DNA of 64,000 nt from Candidatus Falkowbacteria bacterium RIFOXYA2_FULL_38_12 (GTDB lineage Bacteria > Patescibacteriota > Patescibacteriia > XYB2-FULL-38-15). The stretch spans positions 75,805-139,804 of the forward strand of contig MFGA01000020.1 of NCBI GenBank assembly GCA_001778095.1, given 5' to 3'. The position numbers were made by a program, and so were the translations under genes. The notes beneath the pieces were generated by a model that had not been told where the DNA came from, did not search any database, and saw nothing but the letters and a program-made list of their open reading frames with translations. Below, piece by piece: positions 2,333-57,361 of the stretch (position 1 is its first letter; each line of letters starts with the position of its first letter).

Positions 2333-2443
2333 ACTATGAAACGCGATTATTGCCTGAGCTTGTCGAAGGCATAATCGCGTACCAAGACGCCCTTCGACAA
2401 GCTCAGGGAATAAAATTTAGAGCTCAACAATTAATAGTGGCTT

Positions 2444-4472: not shown

Positions 4473-4554
4473 AGAAAATTAAAAGTTAAAAATGAAAAGT
4501 TAAAAGTTAAAGATTATATAACTTTTCACTTTGCACTTTTAATTTCTCACTTCT

Positions 4555-6863: not shown

Positions 6864-7025
6864 ACCCGATGAATAATAATCTTTCGTTACGAAACGCAGT
6901 AATTTTAGGATAAAAATTTAGAAAAGCGACGATGTTTATATGATTAGATATAAGCGGAGGAGCTTTTGCAAATTTTTAGCCAAAATTACTAGTTGCAGTA
7001 GAAAGAATTATTATTCAGTGGGTCT
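6862..7025 (-). repeat. ~160-nt structured repeat, copy 1 (inverted orientation relative to copies 2 and 3)
   Basis: Internal ~120 nt nearly identical to the reverse complement of 40906..41064 and 57362..57520. Flanked by its own ~19-bp terminal inverted repeat. Abuts the gpmI start codon. Confidence 0.8.
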
Positions 7026-7037
7026 AATGAACAATTT

Positions 7038-8585: not shown

Positions 8586-8624
8586 AAGTTTCCACCTCTG
8601 CCAAGGCTGCGGTGGGCAAGAAAA

Positions 8625-8700
8625 ATGTAAAGTGAAAAATTACAGTTAAAAGTCCAAAGTTAGAAAGACTTTTAACTTTTAATTTATCACTTTTAACTTA
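8625..8700. repeat. AT-rich palindromic AAAGTGAAAA/GTTAAAAGT element
   Basis: Imperfect hairpin built from AAAGTGAAAAATTACAGTTAAAAGT and the reverse-complement words ACTTTTAACTTTTAATTTATCACTTTTAACTT. Ends 4 nt before the GTG start of the second gpmI. Confidence 0.7.
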
Positions 8701-8704
8701 ATCT

Positions 8705-10279: not shown

Positions 10280-10425
10280 AAAATCCTAAATCCGAATTTC
10301 TAAATCCTAAACAATATCTAATGACTAAAATTCAAATGTTCAAAACAAAATTGTTTGAAATTTTGAAAATTAGTATTTTGAATTTGTTTAGAGTTTAGGA
10401 TTTTGGATTTCGAATTTAAAAATTT

Positions 10426-11784: not shown

Positions 11785-12861
11785 ATGGAAATTTTAATTT
11801 TGGCCGGAGGAGGAGGAAAGAGACTTTGGCCGGTTTCTCGAAAGAAAAATCCCAAACAGGTACAACCTATTTTGGGCGACAAAACCTTACTGGAAGAAAC
11901 CTATAACCGTTTTGTAGGTAATTTTGATAAAAAAAATATTTACATTTCAACAAATAGTAATCAGGTTAATTTTATAAAAAAAGCGATAAAAAATTTTGAT
12001 AAGAAAAATTTAATCATTGAGCCAGAAAAAAAAGATACGGCCGCGGCGGTTGGACTGGCGGCAACAATAATTGCTAAAAAAAATCCAAAAGGGATTATTG
12101 CCACGGCCAATTCCGATGCCCATATAGAAAACAGCAAAGAGTACTTGAAAATTTTAAAATTGGGAGAGGAAACAGTCAAAAATAATCCACAAAAGACAGT
12201 TCTTATCGGCGTAAAGCCAAGATATCCGGAAACCGGTTATGGATATATAAAAGTGAAATTTCAAATGTCAAATGTCAAATTTCAAAAAGTATTGGAGGTG
12301 GAAAGATTTGTCGAAAAACCGGATCTAGAAACGGCTGAAAAATATATTGAATCCGGAGAATATTTGTGGAATCCGGCGATATTTATTTGGAGGGTTGATT
12401 ATCTACTAAGCCTTTATGCGAAGTATTTGCCGGAGATGTATTCCATATTGATGAAAATTCAAGAGTCTATTGGCAAGAAAAATGAAGCCAGAATTTTAAA
12501 GCAAGAATTTTCCAAAATAAAACCGATTTCCATTGACTATGGCATAATGGAAAAAGAAAAAGAAATGCTCGTTGTTCCCGGAGATTTCGGTTGGGCGGAT
12601 ATTGGACACTGGAGGGCGGTGGAAGAAGCCTTAAGCGATAAAAATAAAAAAAATGTTATAAAAGGTAATTGTGTAAGCCACGATAGCGACGGTAACCTAA
12701 TTTATAATTTTACCAAAAAAGTAGTTGGTATTTGCGGTCTCAAGGATATGATTGTTGTTGAAACCGATGACGCTCTTTTAGTTTGCCCCAAAGATAAAGC
12801 CCAGCTGGTTAAAAATCTTGTAGAGGAAATAGAAAAGAGCAAATACAAAAAATATATTTAA
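11785..12861 (+). CDS. mannose-1-phosphate guanylyltransferase-like sugar nucleotidyltransferase
   Basis: N-terminal ILAGGGGKRLWP nucleotidyltransferase signature plus C-terminal left-handed beta-helix-like region. Confidence 0.7.
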   Translation: MEILILAGGGGKRLWPVSRKKNPKQVQPILGDKTLLEETYNRFVGNFDKKNIYISTNSNQVNFIKKAIKNFDKKNLIIEPEKKDTAAAVGLAATIIAKKNPKGIIATANSDAHIENSKEYLKILKLGEETVKNNPQKTVLIGVKPRYPETGYGYIKVKFQMSNVKFQKVLEVERFVEKPDLETAEKYIESGEYLWNPAIFIWRVDYLLSLYAKYLPEMYSILMKIQESIGKKNEARILKQEFSKIKPISIDYGIMEKEKEMLVVPGDFGWADIGHWRAVEEALSDKNKKNVIKGNCVSHDSDGNLIYNFTKKVVGICGLKDMIVVETDDALLVCPKDKAQLVKNLVEEIEKSKYKKYI

Positions 12862-20299: not shown

Positions 20300-20505
20300 T
20301 TTTTAGGAGATTTGACAAATATCTATCCATAAGGTAAACTCTTTAAAAGTGAATAAAGCCATAGACAGCAGGCGTTCCGTCCAGCGGAACTTAATCAAAG
20401 AAAGCCCGCCGAGGTAAATCGCCCCTTTTGGGGATTATGTCTGTGGTAATGCCACAGTTTTTTATTACAAATTACGCAAATAAAAGCGAATATAAAACTA
20501 ATATT
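20300..20505 (+). promoter_or_regulatory. candidate ribosomal protein L10 leader / rplJL promoter region
   Basis: ~200 nt structured non-coding region (gcaggcgttccgtccagcggaac hairpin) immediately upstream of rplJ. L10(L12)4 autoregulatory leaders occupy this position in many bacteria. Confidence 0.35.
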
Positions 20506-24704: not shown

Positions 24705-25112
24705 ATGATTTTTATAATAAACACAGCGACACAAGGCGCAACATCCGTCGCCCTAATAAAGGGCGATTCTTTTTATAAAAAAACAGTCGCCGGAAAAGAG
24801 TCCGGTAAAATATTAGTTTTACTTGATAATTTGTTAAAAAAAGTGAAAGCAAAAAAAGAAGATCTCACGGGGGTGGTAGTCGTGAGTGGGCCGGGACCGT
24901 TTACTTCGGTAAGGCAGGGAGTTGTTGTCGCTAATGCTTTGGCGCGACTTCTTAATATTCCAATCATTGGTGTGCGAGCGGAAGAATTTAATTTAGATAA
25001 AAAATCAGTCGCGGATTATGAGGCCAAGCTGAAGAAAGTTAAAGCGGGAAAAATCGTTTTGCCTTTTTATGACAGAGAACCAAATATTACAAAGCCGAAG
25101 GTGAGTATCTAG
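24705..25112 (+). CDS. tsaB: TsaB/YeaZ-like protein (short)
   Basis: MIFIINTATQGATSVAL...GPGPFTSVRQGVVVANALARLLNIPIIGV matches the N-terminal half of TsaB. Only 135 aa. Confidence 0.5.
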   Translation: MIFIINTATQGATSVALIKGDSFYKKTVAGKESGKILVLLDNLLKKVKAKKEDLTGVVVVSGPGPFTSVRQGVVVANALARLLNIPIIGVRAEEFNLDKKSVADYEAKLKKVKAGKIVLPFYDREPNITKPKVSI

Positions 25113-25143
25113 TATCTAGTATTCAGTATTTAGTATAAAAAAG

Positions 25144-25972: not shown

Positions 25973-26007
25973 AGAAGTTAAAAGTGAAAAATGAAAAGTT
26001 AAAAGTT
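25972..26007. repeat. AAAGTGAAAA/GTTAAAAGT element (single arm)
   Basis: aaagaagttaaaagtgaaaaatgaaaagttaaaagtt, immediately 5' of the rsmH ATG. Confidence 0.6.
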
Positions 26008-26994: not shown

Positions 26995-27013
26995 AATTTA
27001 GCGGAAGTTTTTT

Positions 27014-27125
27014 CTGTGTCATCCTGACCCCGCCTTTTGCGGGGGAAGGATCTCTCGCGAATGCGAGCTAGAAAAGGATATTGCGGACATTCGTCCGAGA
27101 TCCTTCACTGCGTTCAGGATGACGG
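27014..27125. repeat. GC-rich multi-stem (cloverleaf-like) structured element
   Basis: Outer stem GTCATCCTGA/TCAGGATGAC encloses CCCCGC-cttttg-CGGGG and a second stem AAGGATCTC/GAGATCCTT, which itself contains CTCGC-gaat-GCGAG and CGGAC-attc-GTCCG. Confidence 0.5.
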
Positions 27126-27153
27126 CTTGTCGGGTTGAGCGCAAGATAAAAAT

Positions 27154-27612: not shown

Positions 27613-27687
27613 CTGTCATTCCCGCGAAGGCGGGAATCCACTCGCAATTATTTTAAAGTAGATTCCCGCCTTCGCGGGAATGACAAA
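27613..27687. repeat. twin GC hairpins with identical stems and complementary loops
   Basis: GTCATTCCCGC-gaag-GCGGGAATC and its exact reverse complement GATTCCCGC-cttc-GCGGGAATGAC, 21 nt apart. Overlaps the first annotated codons of tgt. Confidence 0.6.
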
Positions 27688-30459: not shown

Positions 30460-33203
30460 ACTGCGCCGCGTGCGCTGGAAGCGGAAAAATCGGAGGAGGG
30501 AAGTGCCTTTCCTGCCATGGTTTGGGTATGGGAATTTATAGAGACAAAAAATTTCTATATTGGAATAAAATAATTACAAATCAGGAGTTGGAAAAGAAAA
30601 AAGCGGAGAAATTCTTAAAATTATTTTTAAATGGGATATCTTTTGTTTTTAGCGTTCTGGCTACTCTACTTTTACTTTGGCAAATAGTGGAAAACAGTTT
30701 TTTTGGCCAGATTTTTACCTTATCTTTTTGGATTTCGGGCAGTCCGGTCGTAACCTTATTTTTGGTTTCTTTATTGGTTGACGCTTATTTAATTTATCGT
30801 TTTTCCGAAGAAATTGCCCAAAAGGCGAAGATTGAGAAAAAAGAATATCAAGACAAGGAGGGAGAGAAAAAAGAGGAGGTAATGGAAACTCTTCCGTCCG
30901 ACTGGGTTTCCGTGCGCGATTTATCAAGCAAAATAAAAATAAATGTTGCCGATACTTTTACTTTTGATGCCCAAAAAGCCGTAGAGGATGCTTTTTTTGT
31001 GGCCACAAAATTTAATCATGGTAAAATTTTGCCATTGCATCTTTTTATAGCTCTTCTTTTTTCCAAAAAGGCGGCAATAGTTTTTGGAAGATTGGGAGTG
31101 AATTTAAAAGAAATGCAGGAAAAACTAGGCCGACAAATATCTTCTGTGGGTGAACTTCTTGCGGAAGGTCAAGAGTCGGTTTTTAGCGAAGAATTAATCC
31201 AATTATTTTTTGATGGATATTTTGAAGCCTACAATTCAAGGCGAGAACAGATTGATATTGCCGAACTTTTGCTCGTTGTTTCCAGATCTAATCCAATCAT
31301 TCAAGAATTGCTTTATGAATATGAAGTTGATCTTGATAAGTTGAAAAACGTAGTGGAGTGGCTTAGGATTTCCGAATTTTTAAGAAAAAGATGGCAAAAA
31401 ACAAGAACGCTGGCGAGATTAAAGCCGGGGGGCACAATGTCGCGGGCAATGACAGCTGTGGCCACGCCATATTTGGATCGTTTCAGTCAGGATTATACAA
31501 TGATGGCAAAATACGGATATTTCGCGCCGTGTCTCGGCAGGGAAAAAGAAATTGAGGAAATTTTTAGAATTATAGAAGGCGGTCGGCAGAGCGTTATTTT
31601 AATCGGTAATCCGGGAATAGGAAAATCGGCAATCCTCGAAGGTATTGCCCAAAGGATGGTGGAAGAAGATGTGCCGAAAATTTTGCAAGACAAAAGATTA
31701 GTAAATTTAAATATCGGACAATTGGTTGCCGGAGCGACGGCTTCTGAAGTTCAAAAAAGATTGTTGATGATTTGCGATGAAATAGCCCGCGCGGGAAATA
31801 TCATTCTTTGCATTCAGGATATTGAAGGAATGATCGGAATTACTTCCGGCGATAAAGAGAGTATTGATTTATCAAGAGTTTTGGCTGATGAATTGTCGCA
31901 AGGTTATTTTTTTGCGATTGCTTCGGCAAGATCCGGAGTGTATGGTCAATACATTGAAAACTCTTCGTTGGGGGCGGTTTTGCAAAAGGTGACAATAGAA
32001 GAGCCGGATACTAATGGAGCGATCCAAATTTTGGAAGGTAAGGCCGGAGCGATTGAATATCAAAACAAAGTGGTTTTTTCTTATGACGCTATTTCCAAGG
32101 CGGTGATTTTGTCCGGTCGTTATTTGCACGACAGATATTTACCGGAAAAAGCCATAGAAATAATGAGAGAAGTAGCACATTATGCGGCAGGGAAACGCGG
32201 AGTGGGGACAATCGTTGTCGGGGAAGATGTGGCTGAAGTAATCGCGCAAAAAACCAAAATACCAGTAACCGCGGTAAATGAAGTTGAATCGGAAAAATTA
32301 TTGCGCCTGGAAGAAGAAATGCATAAGCGAGTGATTGGTCAAGAAGAAGCGATTAAAATGATTGCCGCGGCGCTTCGTCGGGCGAGAGCGGAAATTCGCG
32401 AGGCTAAGCGACCGATTGCCAACTTTTTATTTTTGGGACCGACCGGTGTAGGAAAAACCGAAACGGCAAAAACAGTTTCCGAGGTTTATTTTGGCGATGA
32501 GAGAAATATGATTCGGCTTGATATGTCAGAATATCAAGATCAAGCCAGTATTTATCGCTTGATCGGCGCGCCGGCAGGAAATTCAGCCGGACTTTTGACC
32601 GAGGCGGTGCGTAAAAATCCTTTTACTTTGGTTTTGCTGGATGAAATAGAAAAATCCCATCCGGATATTTTGAATGTTTTTTTGCAAGTTATGGATGACG
32701 GTCGCCTGACCGATAACTTGGGTCGAACGGTTGATTTTACTAATGTTATTTTAATTGCCACTTCCAATGCCGGTTCTCCGGCGATTCAAGACGGAATAAA
32801 GCAAGGATTGACTATTGAAGCGGTCAAAGAGCAACTTATAAATACGGAATTAAAGCCATATTTCAGACCGGAGTTTTTAAATCGTTTTGACGGGATTGTT
32901 GTTTACCGTCCGCTTACCAGTCCGGAAATAGAACAAATTGCCGGCTTGATGCTTGCCAAAATCGGGAAACAGTTGGAGAATAAGCGGGGGATTGTTCTTG
33001 AGGTTACGGGCGAAGCTGTGCGCGAACTAGCCGCGGCTGGTTTTGATCCTGCTTTTGGAGCAAGACCATTACGTCGAGTGATTCAGGAAAAAGTTGAGGA
33101 TGGCTTGACTAATCTTATTTTGACGAAGAAAATTGAAAGAAGAGATAAAGTTATTTTGGAAGTTGGGGGAAATTTTAGAATAGAAAAGGGGAGAGTGTTA
33201 TAA
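30432..33203 (+). CDS. membrane-anchored ClpC/ClpB-like AAA+ ATPase with N-terminal DnaJ-type zinc-finger motifs
   Basis: Two AAA+ modules (Walker A GNPGIGKS and GPTGVGKT, sensor and arginine-finger regions). Clp_N-like repeats. N-terminus carries CAACAGSG and CLSCHGLG (CxxCxGxG) followed by two TM helices. Confidence 0.8.
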   Translation: MLKMPNNFLNCAACAGSGKIGGGKCLSCHGLGMGIYRDKKFLYWNKIITNQELEKKKAEKFLKLFLNGISFVFSVLATLLLLWQIVENSFFGQIFTLSFWISGSPVVTLFLVSLLVDAYLIYRFSEEIAQKAKIEKKEYQDKEGEKKEEVMETLPSDWVSVRDLSSKIKINVADTFTFDAQKAVEDAFFVATKFNHGKILPLHLFIALLFSKKAAIVFGRLGVNLKEMQEKLGRQISSVGELLAEGQESVFSEELIQLFFDGYFEAYNSRREQIDIAELLLVVSRSNPIIQELLYEYEVDLDKLKNVVEWLRISEFLRKRWQKTRTLARLKPGGTMSRAMTAVATPYLDRFSQDYTMMAKYGYFAPCLGREKEIEEIFRIIEGGRQSVILIGNPGIGKSAILEGIAQRMVEEDVPKILQDKRLVNLNIGQLVAGATASEVQKRLLMICDEIARAGNIILCIQDIEGMIGITSGDKESIDLSRVLADELSQGYFFAIASARSGVYGQYIENSSLGAVLQKVTIEEPDTNGAIQILEGKAGAIEYQNKVVFSYDAISKAVILSGRYLHDRYLPEKAIEIMREVAHYAAGKRGVGTIVVGEDVAEVIAQKTKIPVTAVNEVESEKLLRLEEEMHKRVIGQEEAIKMIAAALRRARAEIREAKRPIANFLFLGPTGVGKTETAKTVSEVYFGDERNMIRLDMSEYQDQASIYRLIGAPAGNSAGLLTEAVRKNPFTLVLLDEIEKSHPDILNVFLQVMDDGRLTDNLGRTVDFTNVILIATSNAGSPAIQDGIKQGLTIEAVKEQLINTELKPYFRPEFLNRFDGIVVYRPLTSPEIEQIAGLMLAKIGKQLENKRGIVLEVTGEAVRELAAAGFDPAFGARPLRRVIQEKVEDGLTNLILTKKIERRDKVILEVGGNFRIEKGRVL

Positions 33204-33270
33204 GTTAAAGGTTAAAAGTGAAAAATGAAAAGTTGCAACTTCTCACTTTTAACTTTTCATTTTTCACTTT
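33203..33270. repeat. AAAGTGAAAA/GTTAAAAGT palindromic element
   Basis: gttaaaggttaaaagtgaaaaatgaaaagtt + gcaa + cttctcacttttaacttttcatttttcacttt (near-perfect hairpin). Confidence 0.75.
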
Positions 33271-33272
33271 AT

Positions 33273-34349
33273 ATGTATTTTCTCGCGTTCATTGCCGCGT
33301 TTTTATTGGCAGTTTTTTTTACTTATTTCGTCCGGAAAATTGCGTTTAGATTTAATGTTGTGGACACGCCGGGCGGAGAAAGGAAAATTCACAAAAAGCC
33401 AATTCCGCTTTTGGGCGGTTTGGCGATTTTTTTGTCGTTTTTTTTAGTTCTCGGTTTTTTTCTTTTTTTCACGGATAAAATTTTAGCCGGACAAATTTTA
33501 GCAAAACATTTTCTCGGCATTTTTATCGGCGGTGTTTTTTTAATGATTGGCGGAGTTCTGGATGACAAGTACAATTTAAGGGCAAGGTGGCAGCTCGTTT
33601 GGCCGATCCTTGCGGCGATAGCGGTAATTGTGAGTGGTATTGGGGTAAACTATGTTACGAACCCCTTTGGGGGCCTAGTACAGCTTGATAGCTTAAAATT
33701 TGTTCTTTTTAATTTTGACGGGGTTCCCTATAAAATAACTTTGTTGTCCGATGTTTTTACTTTTCTTTGGCTAATGGGAATGATGTATACGACAAAACTT
33801 TTGGACGGACTTGATGGGCTTGTCTCGGGCGTGACCACAATCGGCGCGGTTATTATTTGTTTTGTCAGTTTGATGTCAGAAGTTTCCCAGCCGGAAACGG
33901 CTATTTTGGCCATCGCCTTAGCCGGAGCCTTTGCCGGTTTTTTGATTTGGAATTTCAACCCCGCAAAAATTTTTCTGGGAGAAAGCGGGAGTATTTTTGC
34001 CGGATTTATGCTGGGATCTTTATCTATCATCGCCGGCGGTAAAATTGCCACAACGCTTTTAATTATGGGTTTGCCAATTATAGATGTTTTGATTGTTATT
34101 ATCCAAAGATTATTCAAGTCAAAAAAGATTTTCGCGGCGGATAAAAGGCATCTCCATTTTAGACTCCTTGAAGCCGGTCTAACTCAAAGGCAAGTCGTTC
34201 TAGTTCTTTATGGTATTACTTTTATTTTTGGAATTTCCACGCTAGTTTTAAAAACAGAAGGAAAGATTTTTGCTTTGGGCGCATTGTTTTTACTGGCGAT
34301 AGTTTTGACAGTTGTTTTGTTGAAGAGAAATAAAGAGGGCTTAGAATAA
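33273..34349 (+). CDS. glycosyltransferase family 4 polyprenyl-phosphate HexNAc-1-phosphate transferase (WecA/MraY family)
   Basis: VVDTPGGERKIHKKPIPLLGG (WecA-like) and multiple TM helices. The ORF-table start at 33225 translates the palindromic element and was rejected. Confidence 0.75.
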   Translation: MYFLAFIAAFLLAVFFTYFVRKIAFRFNVVDTPGGERKIHKKPIPLLGGLAIFLSFFLVLGFFLFFTDKILAGQILAKHFLGIFIGGVFLMIGGVLDDKYNLRARWQLVWPILAAIAVIVSGIGVNYVTNPFGGLVQLDSLKFVLFNFDGVPYKITLLSDVFTFLWLMGMMYTTKLLDGLDGLVSGVTTIGAVIICFVSLMSEVSQPETAILAIALAGAFAGFLIWNFNPAKIFLGESGSIFAGFMLGSLSIIAGGKIATTLLIMGLPIIDVLIVIIQRLFKSKKIFAADKRHLHFRLLEAGLTQRQVVLVLYGITFIFGISTLVLKTEGKIFALGALFLLAIVLTVVLLKRNKEGLE

Positions 34350-34388
34350 GATTTTAAGATATTTTATTAATAAATAATTTAAAAACAT

Positions 34389-34745
34389 ATGGGCATTCAA
34401 GTGGAATTCAATCCAGATTTAGCATTAAGAGATATTTCTGAATTCAAAAAAGGAAATCGAAAAGTGGAAGAATGTATCCCGGAAAATTTAGAAGCTGGAA
34501 AAGCATATCCTTTTTTTAAGAAAGATCAAAGAAATTATTGGTTGTTTGGCGAAATTCCTTTATTGCAGACAAAGGGGAACGGAGTTTTATCTAGACCAAG
34601 AGCAAGTATCGTGATGCTTGAAGCAACTCATTTCTTGGTTGACGGAGAAGTGTATACTAGGGGGAAATATAAGGTTGTCGAAGTATTCAGGGATAATAAA
34701 ATATATTTTGAAGGATTAGATCGAGTTGGTTCTAAAAATTTCTAA
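34389..34745 (+). CDS. hypothetical protein
   Basis: 118-aa ORF with no recognisable motifs. Confidence 0.3.
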   Translation: MGIQVEFNPDLALRDISEFKKGNRKVEECIPENLEAGKAYPFFKKDQRNYWLFGEIPLLQTKGNGVLSRPRASIVMLEATHFLVDGEVYTRGKYKVVEVFRDNKIYFEGLDRVGSKNF

Positions 34746-34840
34746 CTGGAGAGACTCCGTTTCATTTTACGCCACGTGTGTTATTAATATTTCCAAAAAT
34801 AAAACATCTATGCTAAGATAAATTAATAATTAAATTGATT

Positions 34841-34954
34841 TTAATCCAATATGGGACAAAATAGCGCGGCAAAAGCAAGAACAAAACACGCTCACAAAAA
34901 CACGAAGATTGGCAAGAAATTGGCGGAACATACCAAAAGGCTGAGAAAGAAAGG
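34841..34954 (+). CDS. small highly basic protein (37 aa), unannotated in ORF track
   Basis: MGQNSAAKARTKHAHKNTKIGKKLAEHTKRLRKKGHG. ATG preceded by an AT-rich region. Below the ORF-track length cutoff. Confidence 0.3.
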
Positions 34955-34989
34955 GCACGGCTAAGAGAAAAAATGCAGAGATGATTTTT

Positions 34990-35080
34990 TGTTTCCCCTC
35001 CCTTGATGGGAGGGGCTAGGGGAGGGTGGTCGTATAAATTCACCCCCACCTAACCTCCCCCATCGAGGGGGAGGAAATTT
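34990..35080. repeat. paired GC-rich hairpin element (CCCCTCCC-loop-GGGAGGGG family)
   Basis: CCCCTCCC-ttgat-GGGAGGGG, a middle GGTGG/CCACC stem, then CCTCCCCC-atcga-GGGGGAGG. Confidence 0.65.
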
Positions 35081-35092
35081 GGTGATAATTTT

Positions 35093-35533
35093 ATGGAAAA
35101 ATTTTATTCAATTGTTTTTGGCGTCATTTTAGTGACAGCAGTAGTCATGAAAGTCGGCCAATATTCCAATGAGCATGGCAGGGTTATTGTCGGTGAAGAT
35201 AAGATAAAGGTTGAAATTGTCAGTCAATTGACATCAAGGCAGAAAATGTTGGATTGGCAGGAAGATATGGACAAAGACAATGGGCTTCTCTTTGTTTTGG
35301 ATAAGCCGTCCGAGACTACAGCTTGGTTAAACGAGCTACGATTGCCGGCTGATATCATTTGGCTCCAGAATGGGCAAATAATTGATCTTGCCCCAAATCT
35401 ACCGGCAATTGGTAGTGATTTGCTTGATGGCTACAAAACCCCAAAACCGGCCACTCATATTTTAGAAATCGGTTCCGGTTTTGTGGATAAGTACGACCTA
35501 AAAATCGGGGATAGGCTGGAGATTGAGATATAG
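35093..35533 (+). CDS. DUF192 (COG1430) family protein
   Basis: N-terminal TM helix. GLLFVLDKP...AWLNELRLPADIIWL...ATHILEI...IGDRLEI fits the DUF192 pattern. Confidence 0.5.
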   Translation: MEKFYSIVFGVILVTAVVMKVGQYSNEHGRVIVGEDKIKVEIVSQLTSRQKMLDWQEDMDKDNGLLFVLDKPSETTAWLNELRLPADIIWLQNGQIIDLAPNLPAIGSDLLDGYKTPKPATHILEIGSGFVDKYDLKIGDRLEIEI

Positions 35534-35619
35534 AAACGGCTTATTTTAGATTATAATTGACAAAAAATGAGATAAATGTTTAAATTGTTGAATATTTTTA
35601 TATTACTAAAATTATCATT

Positions 35620-35931
35620 ATGTTCGCTATAATTAAAACCGGAGGAAAGCAATACAAGGTAAAACAAGGGGAAACCTTGAAAATAGAAAAAATCGTCGGA
35701 AATGTCGGCGATAAGGTTGATTTTGACAAGGTTCTTTTGCTAGCCGACGAGGAAGGAAAAGACGTTAAAATTGGAAAACCAATGTTGTTGGGAGCTAAAG
35801 TTTCCGCCGAGATATTGGAGCAGGGGAGAGATAAAAAAGTGAATGTCATTAAATATAAACCAAAGGTTCGCTATAGAAGAAAAGCCGGACACAGACAGAT
35901 GTTTACGAAAGTAAAAGTGGTTGGTATCTAG
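35620..35931 (+). CDS. rplU: 50S ribosomal protein L21
   Basis: MFAIIKTGGKQYKVKQGETLKIEKI, the canonical L21 start. 103 aa. Confidence 0.85.
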   Translation: MFAIIKTGGKQYKVKQGETLKIEKIVGNVGDKVDFDKVLLLADEEGKDVKIGKPMLLGAKVSAEILEQGRDKKVNVIKYKPKVRYRRKAGHRQMFTKVKVVGI

Positions 35932-35948
35932 TAGTTGGTATAAATTAA

Positions 35949-35978
35949 AATGCTCATCCGAAAGGATGGGCATTTTTT
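35949..35978 (+). terminator. rho-independent terminator after rplU
   Basis: ATGCTCATCC-gaaa-GGATGGGCAT followed by TTTTTT. Confidence 0.75.
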
Positions 35979-36036
35979 AAATTTTAAAATCTAAATGAAT
36001 CACGAATCATGATTCTTGATTCGTGATTCAGAACAA

Positions 36037-36648
36037 TCATAATTCCTTTCTTCCTTTCAGCGCATCGGAAACAGTCACTTCGTCGGCATATTCAAGGTCG
36101 GCTCCGATAGGTAATCCCCGCGCCAGGCGGGTTATTTTTATTACGGAATTTTTATCAAATGATTTTATAAGCTTGGTGAGATAAAGGATTGTTGTTTCTC
36201 CTTCTAAATCCGGATTTAGAGCAAGAACTATTTCTTTAATATTATTATTCTGGACTCTATAAATTAGCTCTTTAATTTTTAATTGATCGGGCGTGATGCC
36301 GTGCAGTGGGTCGAGAACGCCGCCCAAAACGTGGTATGCGCCAAGATACTCTCCCGTGTTTTCAATGACCGGCAGGTCTTGATGTTCCGCGACAACGCAG
36401 ATGACGGCCTGATCGCGGTTTTTGTCGGAGCAAATGGCACAAGGATTTTTTTCAGAAAAATTTTGGCAGACGTGGCAAGTGGCGATGGAACTGCCTAGCA
36501 TCTCTATGGCCTTTGCGAATTTTATATTATCATCTTGCTTTTGTCTTAATAAATAAAAAACAAAGCGCAGGGCTGTTTTTGGCCCAACGCCAGGGAGACG
36601 GGAGAAGGAGTCGGCTAAGTTTTGGATAACTAAAGGGAACCGTGGCAT
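36037..36648 (-). CDS. recR: recombination protein RecR
   Basis: C4 zinc finger CHVCQNFSEKNPCAICSD. Toprim domain. Confidence 0.9.
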   Translation of the reverse strand: MPRFPLVIQNLADSFSRLPGVGPKTALRFVFYLLRQKQDDNIKFAKAIEMLGSSIATCHVCQNFSEKNPCAICSDKNRDQAVICVVAEHQDLPVIENTGEYLGAYHVLGGVLDPLHGITPDQLKIKELIYRVQNNNIKEIVLALNPDLEGETTILYLTKLIKSFDKNSVIKITRLARGLPIGADLEYADEVTVSDALKGRKEL

Positions 36649-36747
36649 CTAATTAAGATAAATTATAAATTTCGAAGCTAGCTAATAAATTTTCTAATTT
36701 TTAATTTTGTAATTTTTAAATAATGCTTTAATTTCTTAATTTTTAAA

Positions 36748-36850
36748 CTTGGGCGTGGAGCCCGTCCCTTTAGGGCGGGACTAACTTAGACTAACATCTG
36801 TCTCTGCCTAAAGGCAGGACTCCGCCGCAAAGATCAGCTTTGTCCAAGTT
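36748..36850. repeat. GC-rich structured element with TTTAG/TAAA-loop hairpins inside an AT-rich (TAATTTTTAA repeat) intergenic region
   Basis: Outer CTTGG/CCAAG stem. Inner CTGCC-taaa-GGCAG hairpin and GTCCC-tttag...GGGAC hairpin. Flanked by TAATTTTTAA-type repeats. Confidence 0.4.
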
Positions 36851-36948
36851 TCAAACATTAAAACATTAGAAAATTATTTATAAAATTAAAAATTCAAAAA
36901 TTAAAAATTGTTTTATATTCAAAGTTTAGTATTTAGGGGTTTAGAGTT

Positions 36949-38313
36949 TTATTGCCCAATATTCTCAAAATTTGTCTCTAAGTTCTTAAACGACGCTCTA
37001 TTTTCATCAAAAAACAGGGGAACAACACCGGTCGGACCGTTTCTGTGCTTGGCGATATGAATCTCGGCAAGATTTTTTTCTTCAGGAGAAAGATCTCTAA
37101 AATTACGGTCAGCCGCTTTGCGGTAGATAAACATAACAATATCGGCATCCTGCTCAATACTTCCCGATTCGCGCAAATCAGCTAATCTCGGTATGGCGGG
37201 GGAGCGAGCTTCAACCGCGCGATTAAGCTGGGAAAGGACAAGAACGGGAATGTTCAGTTCTCTGGCAATTCCCTTTAAAGATCGAGATATTTCGGATATT
37301 TCTTGGACGCGGTTATCGCTCTTTGTCCGGGATTCCATCAATTGCAAGTAATCTATGACAAGCAAGCCCAAGCCTTGTTCCATCTGGAGTCGTCTCGCTT
37401 TTGTTCTTATTTCCATAATGTTTGAAGTGGCGGAATCGTCTATAAAAATAGGGGCTTCTGACAATACACCCATAGCGTGACCGATGCGAGGAAAGTCGTC
37501 GTCTTCATCACGATCGGAGAGTTTTCCCGTTCTCATTTTCCATAAATCAACTCCTGATTCGGCGCAAAGAAGGCGGTCAACCAATTGTTCTTTGGACATT
37601 TCCAAACTGAAAATTCCAACCGGAGTTTTGCTTCTTATGGCAGCATTTCTCGCTATATCAAGGGCTAAAGAAGTTTTACCAACAGACGGTCTGGCTGCCA
37701 AAATCACTAAATCAGATTTCTGGAGACCGGAAAGAAAATTATCTAATCCGGCAAAGCCAGTTGGAATTCCTCTTAATCTTCCCTTATCGCGATGTAAGAG
37801 ATCAATTCTGTCAAAAGCCTCAGAAAGAATATTTTTGATGGGAATAAAAATCTGCCTTAAGTATTTTTGCGAGACAGAAAAAAGTTTTTGTTCGGCCTTA
37901 TCCAGAATATTTTCCGTTTCTTCTTCTTCATTATAGGCAAAACCGGTTATTTCCCCGGCGGCTTGAAGCAAACGACGCAAAGTAGCCTTTTTCTGAACAA
38001 TATTGGCGTAGTGGACAACATGAGAGGCGGTAGGGACGCTGTTTGTGAGTCCCATCAAATAACTTCTTCCTCCGACCATTTCCAATTTTTTTCTTTCTTC
38101 AAGTTTTGAAGACAAGCTTAAAATATCAATTGGCTCGTGCTTAGCAAAGAGATCAATCATGGCCGCGTAGATTTCGCCGTGGCTGTCTTTGTAAAAATCT
38201 TCCGCACGGACAAGATCGGCAATCCTAATCATGGCATCCTTATCAATCATAAGAGAGCCCAAAAGGGATTGCTCGGCCTCAATATTTTGCGGAGTTATTT
38301 TTTTGTTGGACAT
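36949..38313 (-). CDS. dnaB: replicative DNA helicase DnaB
   Basis: Walker A GKTSLALD in a RecA-like C-terminal domain. N-terminal DnaB domain. 454 aa. Confidence 0.9.
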   Translation of the reverse strand: MSNKKITPQNIEAEQSLLGSLMIDKDAMIRIADLVRAEDFYKDSHGEIYAAMIDLFAKHEPIDILSLSSKLEERKKLEMVGGRSYLMGLTNSVPTASHVVHYANIVQKKATLRRLLQAAGEITGFAYNEEEETENILDKAEQKLFSVSQKYLRQIFIPIKNILSEAFDRIDLLHRDKGRLRGIPTGFAGLDNFLSGLQKSDLVILAARPSVGKTSLALDIARNAAIRSKTPVGIFSLEMSKEQLVDRLLCAESGVDLWKMRTGKLSDRDEDDDFPRIGHAMGVLSEAPIFIDDSATSNIMEIRTKARRLQMEQGLGLLVIDYLQLMESRTKSDNRVQEISEISRSLKGIARELNIPVLVLSQLNRAVEARSPAIPRLADLRESGSIEQDADIVMFIYRKAADRNFRDLSPEEKNLAEIHIAKHRNGPTGVVPLFFDENRASFKNLETNFENIGQ

Positions 38314-38588
38314 ATAAAATTTACTTTTGTTATTTTACCCCAGATAGGTTTTGATTGCAACTTTAGTTTTATTTAGTAGAAACTCATTGACATTTTATAT
38401 TTTTTATGTAATTCTGGCTAAGATAAGGGAAATTTTAATCATTATCCCTTTAGCCGTCAGGCTCAATATTGACTCTTTTTACATACATTTGTCGTTCACT
38501 GATTTATATTTGCTTTAGTCTGTGTTTATGTTATACTGAAAACAAGTTCAAGCCTTTCGTTTTTTAGTTGAAATAGTTGGGTTAATGA

Positions 38589-38665
38589 GGACGATTAGCT
38601 CAGTTGGTTAGAGCGTTCGATTCACATTCGAAAGGTCGGAGGTTCGAATCCTCCATCGTCCACCA
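38589..38665 (+). tRNA. tRNA-Val (anticodon CAC)
   Basis: Cloverleaf: acceptor GGACGAT/ATCGTCC, D-arm GCTC..GAGC, anticodon stem TTCGA/TCGAA with loop TTCACAT, T-arm GGAGG-TTCGAAT-CCTCC, encoded CCA. Confidence 0.8.
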
Positions 38666-38668
38666 GAC

Positions 38669-38775
38669 GAAGTTAAAAGTGAGAAGTGAAAAATTAAAAG
38701 TTGTTGATGATCTGCCCTTAACTTTAAATTTTGAACTGTAACTTTTCACTTTGCATTTTTAACTTTTAATTTATT
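38669..38775. repeat. AAAGTGAAAA/GTTAAAAGT palindromic element
   Basis: agttaaaagtgagaagtgaaaaattaaaagtt ... acttttcactttgcatttttaacttttaattt. Lies between the tRNA and the lepB ATG. Confidence 0.7.
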
Positions 38776-39426
38776 ATGTCATACAACAATTCTGAACCCG
38801 GTCTTGAAAATTTTGGCGGACAGGATGAAGAAAAAAAAATCGTTGAAGAGGAATTAAAAAAGCCGAGTACGTTACGTTATGTTGCCGACTATGTTTTAGA
38901 GTTTGCCAAAATCGTAGTCCTTTCATTGGCAATTATTATTCCGGTTAGATATTTTTTGATTCAGCCTTTTTATGTAAAGGGCGCGTCCATGGAACCCAAT
39001 TTTTTTGACCATGAATATTTAATCATCAACGAAATTAGCTATCGCTTTGAAACGCCGGAAAGAGGGGATATTATCGTTTTTAAATATCCTCACGACCCCA
39101 GTCAATATTTTATAAAAAGAGTAATTGGTTTACCGAATGAAACAGTAGAGATTAAGGATAACAAAATTACGATTTACAACAAAGATAATCCAAACGGCAT
39201 TGCCCTTGATGAAAAATATTTGGAAGACACTGTTCAGACTTTTGGCAACAAGACTCTTGCTCTCGGGGTTGATGAATATTTTGCCCTGGGAGACAACCGG
39301 ACAGCCAGCTATGATTCCAGAAGTTTTGGAGCGGTAAATAAAAGTTTCATTGTTGGAAAAGTTTGGGTGCGAGGTTGGCCGTTTAACAAGATTAAAGTTT
39401 TTGAAACGCCGGAATATAATTTTTAA
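38776..39426 (+). CDS. lepB: signal peptidase I
   Basis: S26 family. Ser box GASMEPN, Lys box KRVIGLPNETVE, GDNR motif. Confidence 0.85.
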   Translation: MSYNNSEPGLENFGGQDEEKKIVEEELKKPSTLRYVADYVLEFAKIVVLSLAIIIPVRYFLIQPFYVKGASMEPNFFDHEYLIINEISYRFETPERGDIIVFKYPHDPSQYFIKRVIGLPNETVEIKDNKITIYNKDNPNGIALDEKYLEDTVQTFGNKTLALGVDEYFALGDNRTASYDSRSFGAVNKSFIVGKVWVRGWPFNKIKVFETPEYNF

Positions 39427-39457
39427 TAGTTGGTCTAATAATGGGGGCAGATAATTT

Positions 39458-40870
39458 ATGCCTAAAATAAAATTGAAAATGAAAAATAAAAAACCAGCCA
39501 AGGAAGATATTCAAAAAATGAAAAAAGAAAAAGCGGCTAAAGTCCAAAGCAAAGTTGAACAACCGATCAAAGAAAAAAAGATTAAAGCGCCGAGAAGCTT
39601 TCAAACCTTAAAAGGGATGAAAGATATTTTGGCGTCTGAAAACAAGTATTGGGAATACGTGAAGACCAAAGCTAAAAATTTTGCTTTAAATTACGGATAT
39701 GAGTCAATAGAAACGCCAATTCTTGAAGAAACGGCTCTTTTTAATCGAGCAGTGGGTAATGAAACCGATATCGTCTCCAAGGAAATGTTTTCTTTCGTTG
39801 ATCAAGGAGAGGAAAATGTTTGCTTGAGACCGGAGGCAACCGCTTCTGTCGTAAGATCTTATGTCCAGCACGGAATGTTGAATCTTCCCCAGCCGGTCAA
39901 GTTCTTTTATTTCGGACCAATGTTCAGATACGATAGACCGCAAGCGGGCAGATTAAGGATGTTTCATCAGATCGGTCTTGAGGCGATCGGTGAAGAAAGC
40001 CCCATTATAGACGCGGAAATCATTTTTTTTGTTTATAATTTCTTAAAAGATTTGGGATTAAAAACGGTGATAGAAATAAACAGTATCGGTTGTCCGAAAT
40101 GTCGCGAAGCCTATAAAACAAAGTTGATTAATTATTACCGCGATCGTAAGTCCGGTCTTTGTGAAGATTGTCAGAAAAGATTGGTGAAAAATCCTTTAAG
40201 GCTTCTTGATTGCAAGGAAGAAGGATGTCAGGCCTATAAAGAAGACGCGCCGCAAATTGTTGATTGGCTTTGCGATGAATGTAAAAATCATTTTGTGGGA
40301 GTTTTGGAATATCTTGATGAATCAGGAGTTATTTATAATCTCAATCCTCGTTTGGTGAGAGGTCTTGATTATTACACAAAAACAGTTTTTGAATTTTTTC
40401 CGGATAATGCGGATGGAGTTGAAAAAAGACAAGATGCTTTGGGTGGTGGCGGACGTTACGATGGCTTGGTTGAATATTTGGGTGGTCGGCCGACGCCAGC
40501 TTGCGGGGTAGCTTTGGGGCTGGAGCGAATTATTTTAAAGTTGAAAGAAAATAATATAGAAATACCGGCGCTTCGAAAACCGGATATATTTTTGGCGCAA
40601 TTGGGAGAACAAGCAAGGAAAAAAAGTTTTATCTTGATTGAAGAATTAAGAAAGTCGGGATTTTATGTTGTACACAGTTGTTCGAAAAAAGGATTGAAGA
40701 AACAGTTGGAGATGGCTAATAAGGATGGCGTTAAATATACTTTAATCTTAGGACAAAAGGAAGTTATTGACGGAACAATTATTGTTCGCGAAATGGAAGG
40801 TGGAGCGCAAGAAATAGTTGATTTCAATAAAACAGTTCAAGAAATGAAAAAGAAAATAATTTTACAGTAA
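39458..40870 (+). CDS. hisS: histidyl-tRNA synthetase (with Lys-rich N-terminal extension and Cys-rich insertion)
   Basis: Class II motifs (fRPE..A.VVRSY, motif 3 GGGGRYDGL). Anticodon-binding C-terminal domain. Inserted CPKC...CEDC...C..C region. Confidence 0.85.
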   Translation: MPKIKLKMKNKKPAKEDIQKMKKEKAAKVQSKVEQPIKEKKIKAPRSFQTLKGMKDILASENKYWEYVKTKAKNFALNYGYESIETPILEETALFNRAVGNETDIVSKEMFSFVDQGEENVCLRPEATASVVRSYVQHGMLNLPQPVKFFYFGPMFRYDRPQAGRLRMFHQIGLEAIGEESPIIDAEIIFFVYNFLKDLGLKTVIEINSIGCPKCREAYKTKLINYYRDRKSGLCEDCQKRLVKNPLRLLDCKEEGCQAYKEDAPQIVDWLCDECKNHFVGVLEYLDESGVIYNLNPRLVRGLDYYTKTVFEFFPDNADGVEKRQDALGGGGRYDGLVEYLGGRPTPACGVALGLERIILKLKENNIEIPALRKPDIFLAQLGEQARKKSFILIEELRKSGFYVVHSCSKKGLKKQLEMANKDGVKYTLILGQKEVIDGTIIVREMEGGAQEIVDFNKTVQEMKKKIILQ

Positions 40871-40905
40871 CAAGCTAATAAAAAATATAATATATAGACC
40901 CCCCG

Positions 40906-41064
40906 AACAATAATCCTTTCTACTGCAACTTGTAATTTTGTCTACAAATTTTCTAAAGCTCCTCCGCTTATCCTGCGGATAAACATCGTCGCTTTATCCC
41001 CGCCATGGGCGGGGCGCTCAAAATTACTGCGTTTCGTAACAAAAGATTATTATTCAGTGGGTCT
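40906..41064 (+). repeat. ~160-nt structured repeat, copy 2
   Basis: Shares ctttctactgcaact.gtaatttt ... ccgcttatcc...ggataaacatc ... aaaattactgcgtttcgtaac with copies 1 and 3. Has its own terminal inverted repeat. Confidence 0.8.
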
Positions 41065-41084
41065 AAAGAAAGAGGGGTGAAATC

Positions 41085-41336
41085 ATGGGACAAGAAGTAA
41101 AAAGAAAAAAAGGAGAAACCTTTGAAAGCATGATGAGGCGTTTTTCAAGACGCGTTCAGCAAAGCGGAAAATTATTGCAAGCCAAAAAAATAAGATTTTA
41201 TGAACCGGAAAAGAGTCGTAATCTTCAACGTGTATCAGCTTTGAGAAGAGAAGATATAAAAAAGAAAAGGGAATATCTGAAGAAAGTCGGAAAATTAAAA
41301 GACGAAGATACAAAAAATAAATATACGCGAAGATGA
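41085..41336 (+). CDS. rpsU: 30S ribosomal protein S21
   Basis: VKRKKGETFESMMRRFSRRVQQSGKL...RFYEPEKSRNL matches the S21 pattern. Confidence 0.8.
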   Translation: MGQEVKRKKGETFESMMRRFSRRVQQSGKLLQAKKIRFYEPEKSRNLQRVSALRREDIKKKREYLKKVGKLKDEDTKNKYTRR

Positions 41337-41848
41337 GCATAAAAGAGAAAATAGAAAAAGATTTTATTGAGGCGCGCAAAGAAAAAAATGAAACCATGGT
41401 CTCCGTCCTTGGTATGTTAAAGGCGGCCATTTTGAATGGTGAAATAGCGGCAAGACCCGCCCGCCAAGCAAGCCAACCCCATGCTTGCATTAGCGGGCAA
41501 GATGCTGGCGTTGCGGGCGGGCCGAAAGAATTTGGAGAAGATGATATTCTGAAAGTTATAGGAAGTGAAGTTAAAAAACACAAAGATTCAATCGGAGAAT
41601 ATACCAAGGGCGGCCGAGAAGATTTGGCTTTGAAAGAAAAACAGGAAATGGAAATTTTAATGAAATATCTTCCGGCTCAAATGACAGAGGAAGAATTAAA
41701 AAAAATCGTAGAAGATAAAATAAAAGACTTGGACGCGAAGGGAGCGGGAGATTTCGGAAAAGTCATGGGCGCGGTGGTGAAAATAGTGGCCGGGCGCGCC
41801 GGTGGAGACACTATGAGTAAAATAGTAAAGGAAATTCTCGGTGCTTGA
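41333..41848 (+). CDS. yqeY: GatB/YqeY domain protein (with internal GC-rich palindromic insertion)
   Basis: N- and C-terminal YqeY-like regions (KEKIEKDFIEARK, GAGDFGKVMGAVVKIVAGRAGGD). Conserved rpsU-yqeY adjacency. Confidence 0.75.
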   Translation: MSIKEKIEKDFIEARKEKNETMVSVLGMLKAAILNGEIAARPARQASQPHACISGQDAGVAGGPKEFGEDDILKVIGSEVKKHKDSIGEYTKGGREDLALKEKQEMEILMKYLPAQMTEEELKKIVEDKIKDLDAKGAGDFGKVMGAVVKIVAGRAGGDTMSKIVKEILGA

Positions 41849-41974
41849 TCTTTGGTGTCGGGGCTGTGTATAAAAAAGACTATCAAAAAATATTTTTTTC
41901 AGTTATAATAAAATAATTGCGAAAAAAGATTATTGGAAAATTTGCGGTTTGATTGTTTTGGAATCGCAATAAAG

Positions 41975-42068
41975 ATTTTAAAGTTAAAAGTGCAAAGTAA
42001 AAAATTAAAAGTTACAATTCAAAGTTAAAAGTTGTTAGCAGTTAATTTTAAACTTTTCACCTTTAGGC
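41975..42068. repeat. AAAGTGAAAA/GTTAAAAGT element
   Basis: aaagttaaaagtgcaaagtaaaaaattaaaagttacaattcaaagttaaaagtt ... aaacttttcaccttt, ending 2 nt before the ATG. Confidence 0.65.
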
Positions 42069-42069
42069 G

Positions 42070-43980: not shown

Positions 43981-44075
43981 AGTGAAAGGTTAAAAGTGAA
44001 AGATGAAAAATTAACGAGTTTTCAACTTTCAACTTTTAACTGTAACTTTACACTTTTCATTTTTCACTTTTAATT
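43981..44075. repeat. AAAGTGAAAA/GTTAAAAGT palindromic element
   Basis: agtgaaaggttaaaagtgaaagatgaaaaatt ... aacttttaactgtaactttacacttttcatttttcacttttaattt. Confidence 0.7.
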
Positions 44076-44079
44076 TACG

Positions 44080-54495: not shown

Positions 54496-54570
54496 ACTAA
54501 GAGGAAAAAGGCAACTTTAAACTTTTAATTGTAACTTTTCACTTCTCATTTTTAACCTTTAACTTAATAC
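54496..54570. repeat. AAAGTGAAAA/GTTAAAAGT element (reverse-arm words only)
   Basis: ggcaactttaaacttttaattgtaacttttcacttctcatttttaacctttaactt, ending 8 nt before the ATG. Confidence 0.6.
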
Positions 54571-54571
54571 T

Positions 54572-55270: not shown

Positions 55271-55311
55271 TCTTCTACGAAATTATCGAAAAGTACGAAA
55301 GTTAGCAAGTT

Positions 55312-55390
55312 CCTCCCCTTTGACAGGGGAGGCGAGGAGGGGATGATTATTCAAGTCACCCTCCCCTAACCCCTCCCGTCAAGGGAGGGG
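55312..55390. repeat. paired GC-rich hairpin element (CCCCTCCC-loop-GGGAGGGG family)
   Basis: CCTCCCC-tttgaca-GGGGAGG and CCCCTCCC-gtcaa-GGGAGGGG. Same family as 34990..35080. Confidence 0.65.
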
Positions 55391-55433
55391 AACACTGCTA
55401 ATCTGCTTATAGACTTATTAGCTAAATTTAAAT

Positions 55434-57302: not shown

Positions 57303-57361
57303 AGACTAATCTCTGATAAAATTTTGAATAATTTGTCAAAATTTTTTTAATATCTTATAAT

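Follow-up and report, generated by a model that had tools for sequence, protein, structure and literature searches.

Introduction

Tandem repeats with a seven-nucleotide unit have been noted for decades in cyanobacteria, Bacteroidetes and giant sulfur bacteria, and their function is still speculative. TAACTGA repeats often lie directly 5′ of start codons in Beggiatoaceae, Cyanobacteria and Bacteroidetes, in sets that comprise 169 direct repeats and 1 indirect repeat (PMC4679880), and TTTTGAA repeats have been described in Nostoc (bioRxiv 10.1101/2022.06.06.494920). Here we analyze eight AT-rich elements, E1 to E8, in a 64,000-nt stretch of DNA (the window) from Candidatus Falkowbacteria bacterium RIFOXYA2_FULL_38_12 (contig MFGA01000020.1). 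Like the STRR, LSSR, TAACTGA and TTTTGAA repeats, these elements have a 7-nt unit in three to eight tandem copies, are intergenic and dispersed, and often stand 5′ of starts in a setting poor in Shine-Dalgarno (SD) sequences; an A-rich unit class, RTKAAAA, recurs in the phyla that carry those repeats. Unlike them, the elements occur as inverted pairs with long hairpins, are degenerate, share non-periodic landmarks and reside in a Patescibacterium. They are not cyanobacterial STRR in the strict sense, the unit being AAAAGTK and the host Falkowbacteria-like.

Dispersed palindromes offer a second comparison. The REP sequences of proteobacteria are about 35 nt long and GC-rich, carry a conserved tetranucleotide and are mobilized by RAYT (IS200/IS605-like Y1) transposases; roles in mRNA stability and transcription attenuation have been proposed for REP, REPIN and BIME elements. 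The elements of the window resemble them as multi-copy, extragenic, inverted palindromic doublets between co-transcribed genes, and differ in being AT-rich and heptamer-periodic, with arms of up to 55 nt. Correia elements (CREE) of Neisseria have 26-bp terminal repeats, a TA target duplication and internal promoters, and their transcribed hairpins are cleaved by RNase III. With these and other miniature inverted-repeat transposable elements (MITEs) E1 to E8 share small size, lack of coding capacity, inverted repeats and dispersal between genes, whereas they consist of repeat array throughout, and neither a target duplication nor a unique internal segment was found in them.

The nearest characterized case is the 5′ untranslated region (UTR) of hmw1A and hmw2A in H. 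influenzae, in which (ATCTTTC)n forms one arm of a long hairpin that is cut by RNase III (PMC12721329). There, too, a heptamer repeat lies within a long hairpin just 5′ of a surface-protein gene, in this instance transcribed, cleaved and variable in number. The hmw element is nevertheless a single locus type with a perfect repeat of at least 11 copies, an unrelated G-rich right arm and clear phase variation, whereas the eight loci of the window, most of which precede housekeeping genes, have degenerate arrays in which the two arms share one unit. A search of the open-access literature yielded no description of heptanucleotide repeats in Patescibacteria, of a palindromic form that makes up most of the spacers, of the rule of arm order that is reported below, or of the terminator hairpins that sometimes stand between the arms.

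Results

Tandem Heptamers in Eight Spacers

A sequence-only reading of this DNA had listed eight elements made of shuffled AT-rich words and their reverse complements. All eight were re-read where it had placed them, as A-rich words followed, in six cases, by the reverse complements. The words are real, but their order is not shuffled. The unit is 7 nt long: the left arm is a degenerate tandem array of AAAAGTK and the right arm its complement, the two arms being homologous. Tandem Repeats Finder reports period-7 arrays in all eight elements, with the consensus AAAGTTA / ACTTTTC, 4.6–7.9 copies per arm and 72–88% matches between neighboring copies, and the distance between AAAGT or ACTTT words within the elements is mostly 7 or 14 nt. 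Lag autocorrelation over the window gives 11 segments at lag 7, as against about 0 in shuffles; four occur at lag 9, one each at lags 8 and 12, and none at lags 4–6, 10, 11, 13 or 14.

Nor are the words simply AT-rich background. The two-unit motif GTKAAAARTKAAAA, scanned with at most one mismatch, has 36 matches in the window, compared with 2.46 ± 1.6 expected from dinucleotide shuffles; 35 of these fall inside the eight elements, and the other is a stray coding match at 17988. The picture of a genuine, strictly intergenic repeat family with short internal periodicity is upheld, all eight copies lying between genes. The GC content of the arms is 11–25%. Searched with a hidden Markov model of the arms, neither the window nor the adjoining 19 kb of the contig (9.6 kb upstream and 9.4 kb downstream) yielded a further copy; the model represents the generic heptamer core alone and does not separate true homologues from convergent arrays in other phyla. 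No element matches Rfam 15 at the gathering score, the matches in the window being tRNA-Val and an L10 leader only.

When the arms are aligned in one orientation, a stretch of about 55 nt is seen to be shared by E5, E7, E8 and E6 (left arm), and the left arm of E2 has a diverged version of it. Inside it an irregular 6-nt unit (AAYTGTAAC) disrupts the 7-nt phase at the identical place. The same landmark occurs in a Patescibacteria metagenome-assembled genome (L083) and in a Candidatus Falkowbacteria genome (L275), where it lies at the hydrogenase-to-HypA junction that E1 occupies in the window. This shared irregular unit argues for common descent and dispersal of the arms, and it is largely established that the eight elements are copies of one dispersed palindromic family. 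The ancestral form would have been, roughly, an A-rich arm of about 55 nt, a short loop and a T-rich arm of about 55 nt; the short copies are outer portions of the ancestral arm. It was thus premature to set aside a MITE-like origin, as the earlier reading had done, since the arms share a derived irregular unit. Membership in the bacterial class of heptanucleotide tandem repeats (STRR/LSSR), in a REPIN-like arrangement, is also shown in large part: the tandem 7-nt unit has at least three copies and is dispersed over eight intergenic loci, and in six of the eight copies an A arm is followed by a T arm, giving the multi-copy, extragenic, inverted imperfect palindromes that define REP/REPIN doublets.

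The Copies and Their Junctions

Pfam identifies the flanking genes much as they had been guessed. E1 (4473–4554) is a full palindrome, with an A arm at about 4473–4513, a T arm at about 4514–4554, a folding energy of −17.8 kcal/mol and a z score against shuffles of −3.9; it fills the whole spacer between the stop codon of the NiFe-hydrogenase large subunit (4472) and the ATG of HypA (4555). The palindrome E2 (8620–8704; A arm at about 8625–8660, T arm at about 8667–8699; −24.7 kcal/mol, z = −4.4) separates two iPGM paralogues and lies about 40 nt past the stop at 8585 and 5 nt before the GTG at 8705. E3 (25973–26007, + strand) is a lone A-rich arm of about five heptamers, with no partner arm and no hairpin, between the MraZ stop at 25972 and the likely RsmH ATG at 26008. 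E4 (33202–33272; −22.9, z = −5.4) contains a 20-nt perfect inverted repeat (33215–33234 / 33251–33270) between the ClpB stop at 33203 and the ATG of a GT4 gene at 33273. In E5 (38666–38775; −26.1, z = −3.7) a short A arm (38669–38702) is paired with a long T arm (38718–38772) between the end of tRNA-Val at 38665 and the LepB ATG at 38776.

The remaining copies accompany genes for surface and repeat proteins. E6 (41973–42069) has a long A arm (41973–42033), a short T arm (42042–42066) and a weak fold (−18.7, z = −1.95); it lies about 120 nt 3′ of YqeY and 3 nt before the ATG of a Big_5 surface protein at 42070. E7 (43979–44082; A arm 43979–44015, long T arm 44019–44076; −26.0, z = −3.2) is a palindrome between the stop of the Big_5 gene at 43980 and the ATG of a giant 3191-aa protein at 44083. 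E8 (54511–54571, + strand) is a lone long T-rich arm between two genes for TSP3-repeat proteins, 3 nt before the ATG at 54572; it is homologous to the T arms of E5 and E7 and includes the irregular AATTGTAAC unit.

That most copies form long imperfect hairpins thus holds for six of the eight (z from −1.95 to −5.4), E3 and E8 being single arms, and the periodicity of the arms allows each hairpin several pairing registers. Every copy ends 2–18 nt upstream of a start codon, as had been observed. Most also begin 0–11 nt past the preceding stop codon or tRNA-Val, the exceptions being E2 and E6. The elements make up the whole spacer in a compact genome, and because they occupy whole spacers, their closeness to start codons is matched by closeness to stop codons; placement before starts, which had been taken as a sign of function, does not carry that meaning. 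The argument from consistent orientation is equally uninformative, because reverse complementation turns an A arm plus T arm into the same arrangement again: the order of arms is identical on both strands, and the single arms of E3 and E8 are opposite. The longest-open-reading-frame (ORF) starts at 25984 and 33225 do fall within E3 and E4, as previously remarked, and 33225 is the start in one public gene call; the true starts are more likely the ATGs farther 3′, at 26008 and 33273.

The genes downstream of the elements lack SD sequences, as had been reported, but this is not specific to them: an SD core is present in only 5 of 54 genes in the window, below the background of 12.9%. At 99 starts drawn from the window and from L273, L274, L204 and L275, position −1 is T in 83, positions −3 to −8 are A-rich, and SD cores do not exceed background. 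For this lineage the context of initiation is thus highly uniform, and it is an unusual one.

Turnover and Decay

The element sequences are identical in at least 10 independent assemblies and are therefore not assembly artefacts; one assembly, GCA_001778195.1, matches the window exactly in a comparison of 14.9 kb. The window belongs to a 165-kb contig of a Falkowbacteria-like Patescibacterium of the Rifle aquifer, whose GpmI is 73% identical to a protein assigned to Candidatus Falkowbacteria. Assemblies of this species, more than 20 in number, are essentially clonal, and the sole variant within any examined element is a 14-nt deletion in E5: strain L130 lacks two units, 38718–38731, and is identical in the rest of a matching 1.77-kb stretch. 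E6 has ambiguous base calls in one assembly. Contigs of the same species tend to break at or beside palindromes (at window position 33300 for the start of L122, 42100 for the end of L125, 10310–10381 for the starts of L267, L270 and L271, and 36676 for the start of L123), which is consistent with multi-copy repeats fragmenting assemblies.

Among relatives the junctions change quickly. In L132, at about 88% nucleotide identity, E6 is 99% conserved, and other palindromes stand at the positions of E5 and E7. The region 41576–42075, comprising the 3′ part of yqeY, the spacer and E6, is 97–99% identical to L132, and the flanking genes are mostly about 75–95% identical in 100-nt windows; the region could be a recent recombination tract or an unusually constrained one. 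In L204, whose GpmI is 80% identical, a TACGAAA-type palindrome occupies the E1 junction and a CCAGTTA-type palindrome the E2 junction. The hydrogenase-to-HypA junction accordingly carries an AAAAGTK element in the window and L275 and a TACGAAA palindrome in L204, and in L204 yet another palindrome separates hypA from pgk, two genes that overlap in the window. Other junctions of L275 carry AATATCC, TACAAAT and AAAGTAT units; more distant relatives often have short empty spacers or direct heptamer arrays. In 735 kb of related Patescibacteria, period 7 accounts for 19 segments, as against at most 5 for any other period that is not a multiple of three.

Selection on stem pairing was considered and rejected: a left arm matches its own right arm no better than it matches the right arms of the other copies (permutation test of complementarity, p = 0.93). 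The arms are also asymmetric in length, long ones being paired with short. Turnover, asymmetric arms, the absence of arm-specific complementarity and the 14-nt deletion together indicate a history that looks like spread followed by decay through 7-nt slippage, rather than maintenance of a stem by compensatory change. That the AAAAGTK family has spread to at least eight spacers, and that its copies lose sequence in 7-nt steps, is for the most part demonstrated. A phage origin was also rejected; a scan of viral contigs for the irregular unit gave 59 matches, none in an array context, and all are therefore chance matches.

The Order of the Arms

Of the 45 co-directional spacers of at least 40 nt in three Falkowbacteria-like genomes, about 28 fold with z ≤ −3. 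The well-folded spacers comprise AT-rich heptamer palindromes, GC-rich REP-like palindromes and a 170-nt structured repeat. In all of the approximately 17 AT-rich ones, which represent about 11 unrelated families of unit, the A-rich half comes first and the T-rich half second; the one exception to this A-first order in the window, at 36688–36910, flanks a GC core. The evidence goes most of the way to showing that the co-directional spacers of this lineage consist largely of such palindromes and turn over fast.

The order extends to other phyla. A scan of the genome collection for RTKAAAA × 3.4 returned more than 120 loci in Bacteroidota, Nostocales, Planctomycetes, Nitrospirae, proteobacteria, several Patescibacteria and one archaeon, including some GC-rich hosts. 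When an inverted partner array was required within 120 nt, 31 pairs were A-first and 4 T-first, or 27 and 1 when counted by locus. Of 28 A-first pairs, 8 enclose a perfect GC-containing stem between their arms, and those of L055 and L090 look, by eye, like canonical terminators. At a lax threshold, applied to all relatives, the count was 30 against 25, with half expected by chance, which is noise: the polarity is clear only among well-folded spacers and array pairs. At 75 related loci, 10% of the co-directional spacers contain a hairpin, as do 7% of the divergent and 7% of the convergent ones; the finder missed several known copies, so that these rates say little about junction type.

Strand-symmetric mutation cannot yield an A-first polarity. 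The A-first order is the polarity of a bidirectional intrinsic terminator, in which an A-tract, a hairpin and a U-tract follow one another.

Two observations concern RTKAAAA arrays that have no such partner or stand in another context. Of 16 single arrays in convergent spacers, 15 are A-rich when read along the strand of the gene closest to them (loci L001–L120; ORF-based calls may bias this count). Every RTKAAAA unit in the A orientation contains TAA or TGA, and because 7 is coprime with 3, at least three units place a stop codon in all three frames right after the gene. In six Bacteroidota loci (L023, L046, L084, L085, L086 and L116), (TTTTCAC)n arrays end, by eye, a few bases 5′ of TAnnTTTG, the Bacteroidetes −7 promoter element; in that phylum the arrays thus overlap the upstream part of promoters.

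Other Repeats of the Window

Further palindromes and arrays occur alongside the family. An AAATCCT...AGGATTT palindrome at 10280–10425 fills the iPGM-to-Fpg spacer with 64-nt arms (−42.1, z = −7.6) and has a homologue at the same junction in L204. A GAATCAC / GTGATTC palindrome at 35993–36033 (−20, z = −4.8) lies directly 3′ of the stop codon of the minus-strand gene recR; no other site ranked higher as terminator-like in a pattern scan. The FtsA-to-FtsZ spacer (58792–58876) is filled by an A-first AT-rich palindrome with a 9-nt unit, AGTAAATTA (−29.4, z = −6.9). A direct array of about 4.7 AGTATCT heptamers on the + strand (25100–25142) overlaps and runs past the stop of ORF 24705–25112 and has no inverted partner. 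A period-7 array of about 4.4 copies of AAATGTC/AAATTTC at 12245–12292 lies within an NTP_transferase/ManC-like coding region (11785–12861), an unusual location for a period that is not a multiple of three.

A second repeat family, 170–210 nt long and strongly structured (z from −3.1 to −10.9), was found in the window at 6864–7037, 40871–41084 and 57303–57552 and in relatives at L273:2140–2304 and L204:3222–3433. It has terminal inverted repeats (GACCCACTGAATAATAAT...), a conserved core (ctttcgttacgaaacgcagtaattttagg) and no Rfam match, and is kept at the SIMPL-to-iPGM junction in a relative whose GpmI is 80% identical; a MITE and an undescribed RNA are both conceivable. Further spacers are occupied by REP-like palindromes rich in GC, such as TGTCATTCCCGCGAAGGCGGGAATCC with its complement (z from −5 to −8), both in the window (2347–2413, 26995–27153, 27614–27685, 34992–35077 and 55271–55433) and in L274 (14705–14929 and 18431–18549). 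The spacers of the lineage are thus a mosaic of several palindrome families.

Two features involve known RNAs. The L10 leader lies at 20341–20473, just 5′ of rplJ, and scores 47 bits against a gathering score of 44. In relatives (L134:7225–7420, L136:5005–5230 and L135:8909–9060), a second tRNA-like sequence (ggacgcatagctcag ... tccagatgcgtccacca) is split in two around the tRNA-Val(CAC) gene 5′ of lepB, with an inverted repeat at its flanks. Only the inner tRNA is called by ARAGORN, and the second sequence, when spliced, is not convincingly a tRNA.

Discussion

A role at the RNA level, in the intercistronic region or the 5′ UTR, is possible. As a tentative reading, to which we would give a little less than even weight, the family may be a REPIN/STRR-like dispersed palindromic heptamer repeat that acts as a leaky terminator, an RNA-processing hairpin or both. 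The elements would be co-transcribed with the neighboring genes, because the distance from element to start codon is too short for a promoter and the downstream genes include essential ones (lepB, hisS). In RNA, each full copy would form an AU hairpin of 20–35 bp with a U-rich 3′ arm, the geometry of an intrinsic terminator of the bidirectional type in which slippage by 7 nt has lengthened the A and U tracts. Such a hairpin might cause leaky termination, as an attenuator, without a dedicated regulator. RNase III cleaves double-stranded RNA of about 20 bp or more, and the stem might also serve as a double-stranded site for that enzyme or as a barrier to exonucleases. In either case neighboring cistrons would no longer be expressed in step.

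The likeness to bidirectional intrinsic terminators is closest in the arrangement of the arms: the 5′ side is A-rich and the 3′ side U-rich, identically on both strands, and all full copies are A-first. A link to true terminators is suggested by the array pairs of other phyla that enclose a canonical GC stem-loop and by the one palindrome of the window that passes the pattern scan. An origin of transcripts within the elements is not indicated. Leaderless transcripts starting in the T arm were considered and rejected, since −10-like hexamers show no peak 6–8 nt before starts, the leaderless distance, in 99 genes; the sole promoter-like match in E5 overlaps the ATG. The elements have no usable promoter, and there is no sign of leaderless transcription.

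Several observations weigh against this proposal. Unlike intrinsic terminators, which have GC-rich stems of 5–14 bp, the elements have no GC-rich core, form stems of 20–35 bp in arms of low GC content, and lie upstream of genes that need read-through. A terminator pattern scan of 33000–45000, which includes E4 to E7, calls none of the four, and canonical terminators with a GC-rich core are present elsewhere in the window, at 14865, 21490, 27530 and 35950. Several copies separate functionally linked genes (hydrogenase/HypA, MraZ/RsmH and iPGM/iPGM) between which termination would seem unwanted. In three 5′-UTR-only cases (E6, L275:761–890 and L143:8948–8998), the palindrome hugs a start codon with no stop nearby, and the A-first polarity could instead reflect a preference for U-rich sequence just 5′ of starts. 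As to mobility, no target-site duplication is visible by eye at the flanks of the elements, and no transposase was found, a RAYT-like gene being absent among the called genes of the 83 kb of contig covered; inverted arms of the MITE kind are present, but relatives without the element hold other palindromes rather than a clean empty site.

An unlikely alternative is that the arrays are selfish or neutral DNA. Slippage that prefers 7 nt, together with template switching, would make and homogenize palindromic arrays that survive only in spacers, and the RNA hairpin would have no selected effect. Fast turnover, presence and absence at orthologous junctions and decay by 7-nt indels are what such a process should leave behind, as is the dominance of period 7 in relatives with many unrelated units; among long simple repeats with units of 5–11 nt, heptamers are also reported to be the most abundant class in most genomes rich in such sequences, an excess ascribed to slippage (Mrazek 2007, as summarized in PMC4679880). 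What neutral drift leaves unexplained is the A-first polarity across unrelated units and phyla, given the symmetry of mutation between strands, and the GC terminator hairpins between the arms at some loci.

It is somewhat harder to credit that the elements form a translation module for genes that lack SD sequences. The U-rich 3′ arm would be a landing site for the ribosome (through S1), masked by the A arm; a ribosome ending at the stop codon would melt the stem, expose the site and re-initiate, giving strict translational coupling. The scarcity of SD cores in the window is in keeping with such a device, and the geometry is apt: stem bases of full copies lie 0–11 nt from the stop and 2–11 nt from the start, copies stand between functionally linked genes, and in partly filled spacers (E2, E6, L275:761–890 and L143:8948) it is the start that the palindrome hugs. 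Similar proposals have been made for the TAACTGA repeats 5′ of starts in Beggiatoaceae (PMC4679880) and for the Nostoc heptamers. Yet no upstream ribosome could melt E5, which comes after a tRNA gene, or E6, which is separated from the nearest ORF by about 120 nt; E3 places an A-rich rather than a U-rich arm before the AUG; and the GAATCAC palindrome is at the 3′ end of a gene, with no start nearby. The orthologous junctions of relatives often have no element, and no arm-specific compensation is seen.

Both the leaky terminator and the melting stem could be instances of something wider, although we consider this improbable: that the A-first heptamer hairpin is a general intercistronic device of SD-less genomes, in Falkowbacteria and perhaps wherever heptamer arrays abound. 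Such a device would bridge a stop codon and the next start, and leaky termination or ribosome melting and re-initiation would set the downstream output, and stem length would be tuned in evolution in steps of one 7-nt unit. Alternatively, a pitch of 7 nt might mirror an RNA-binding protein of ring shape, as in HutP, which recognizes UAG at 7-nt intervals.

Little speaks for the promoter or operator module that the sequence-only reading had put forward, in which a DNA-binding protein would control the downstream gene through repeated AAAGT half-sites; we rate it very improbable. The Bacteroidota (TTTTCAC)n arrays that, by eye, stand directly 5′ of the TAnnTTTG −7 motif give it some encouragement, and Streptomyces SARP regulators are reported to bind heptameric direct repeats (PMC5930380). 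Against this, a spacing of 7 bp is out of phase with the DNA helix, none of the three divergent spacers in the window, which serve promoters only, holds an element, and the promoter scan found nothing usable in the elements, including no convincing −35/−10 pair to serve the downstream start, whereas inspection by eye shows sigma-70-like promoters in other spacers. No functional theme unites the downstream genes. Units differ completely between junctions and species, and since relatives carry unrelated heptamer units at the same junctions, no single half-site-specific protein explains the class.

A phase-variation switch in which heptamer copy number tunes the expression of surface proteins is likewise very improbable. 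In its favor are the hmw precedent, the location of three copies before genes for surface proteins (Big_5, the giant protein and TSP3), the 14-nt indel variant and the ambiguous base calls in E6 of one assembly. Against it, five of the eight precede housekeeping genes, the more than 20 assemblies are otherwise identical at every examined element, and arrays whose adjacent copies match at 72–88% are too degenerate for high slippage.

For the study of heptanucleotide repeats, the window provides an unusually clean setting: a host from the candidate phyla radiation, with a compact, SD-less genome whose spacers are almost wholly palindromes. Two regularities emerge that are open to test, the near-exceptionless A-first order across units and phyla and the occasional presence of canonical terminator hairpins between the arms. 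There is a practical side as well, in that gene callers set starts inside the elements (25984 and 33225) and assemblies break there. If it is true that the polarity reflects termination or attenuation, the order of the arms would supply a simple rule for reading the transcription units of uncultured organisms.

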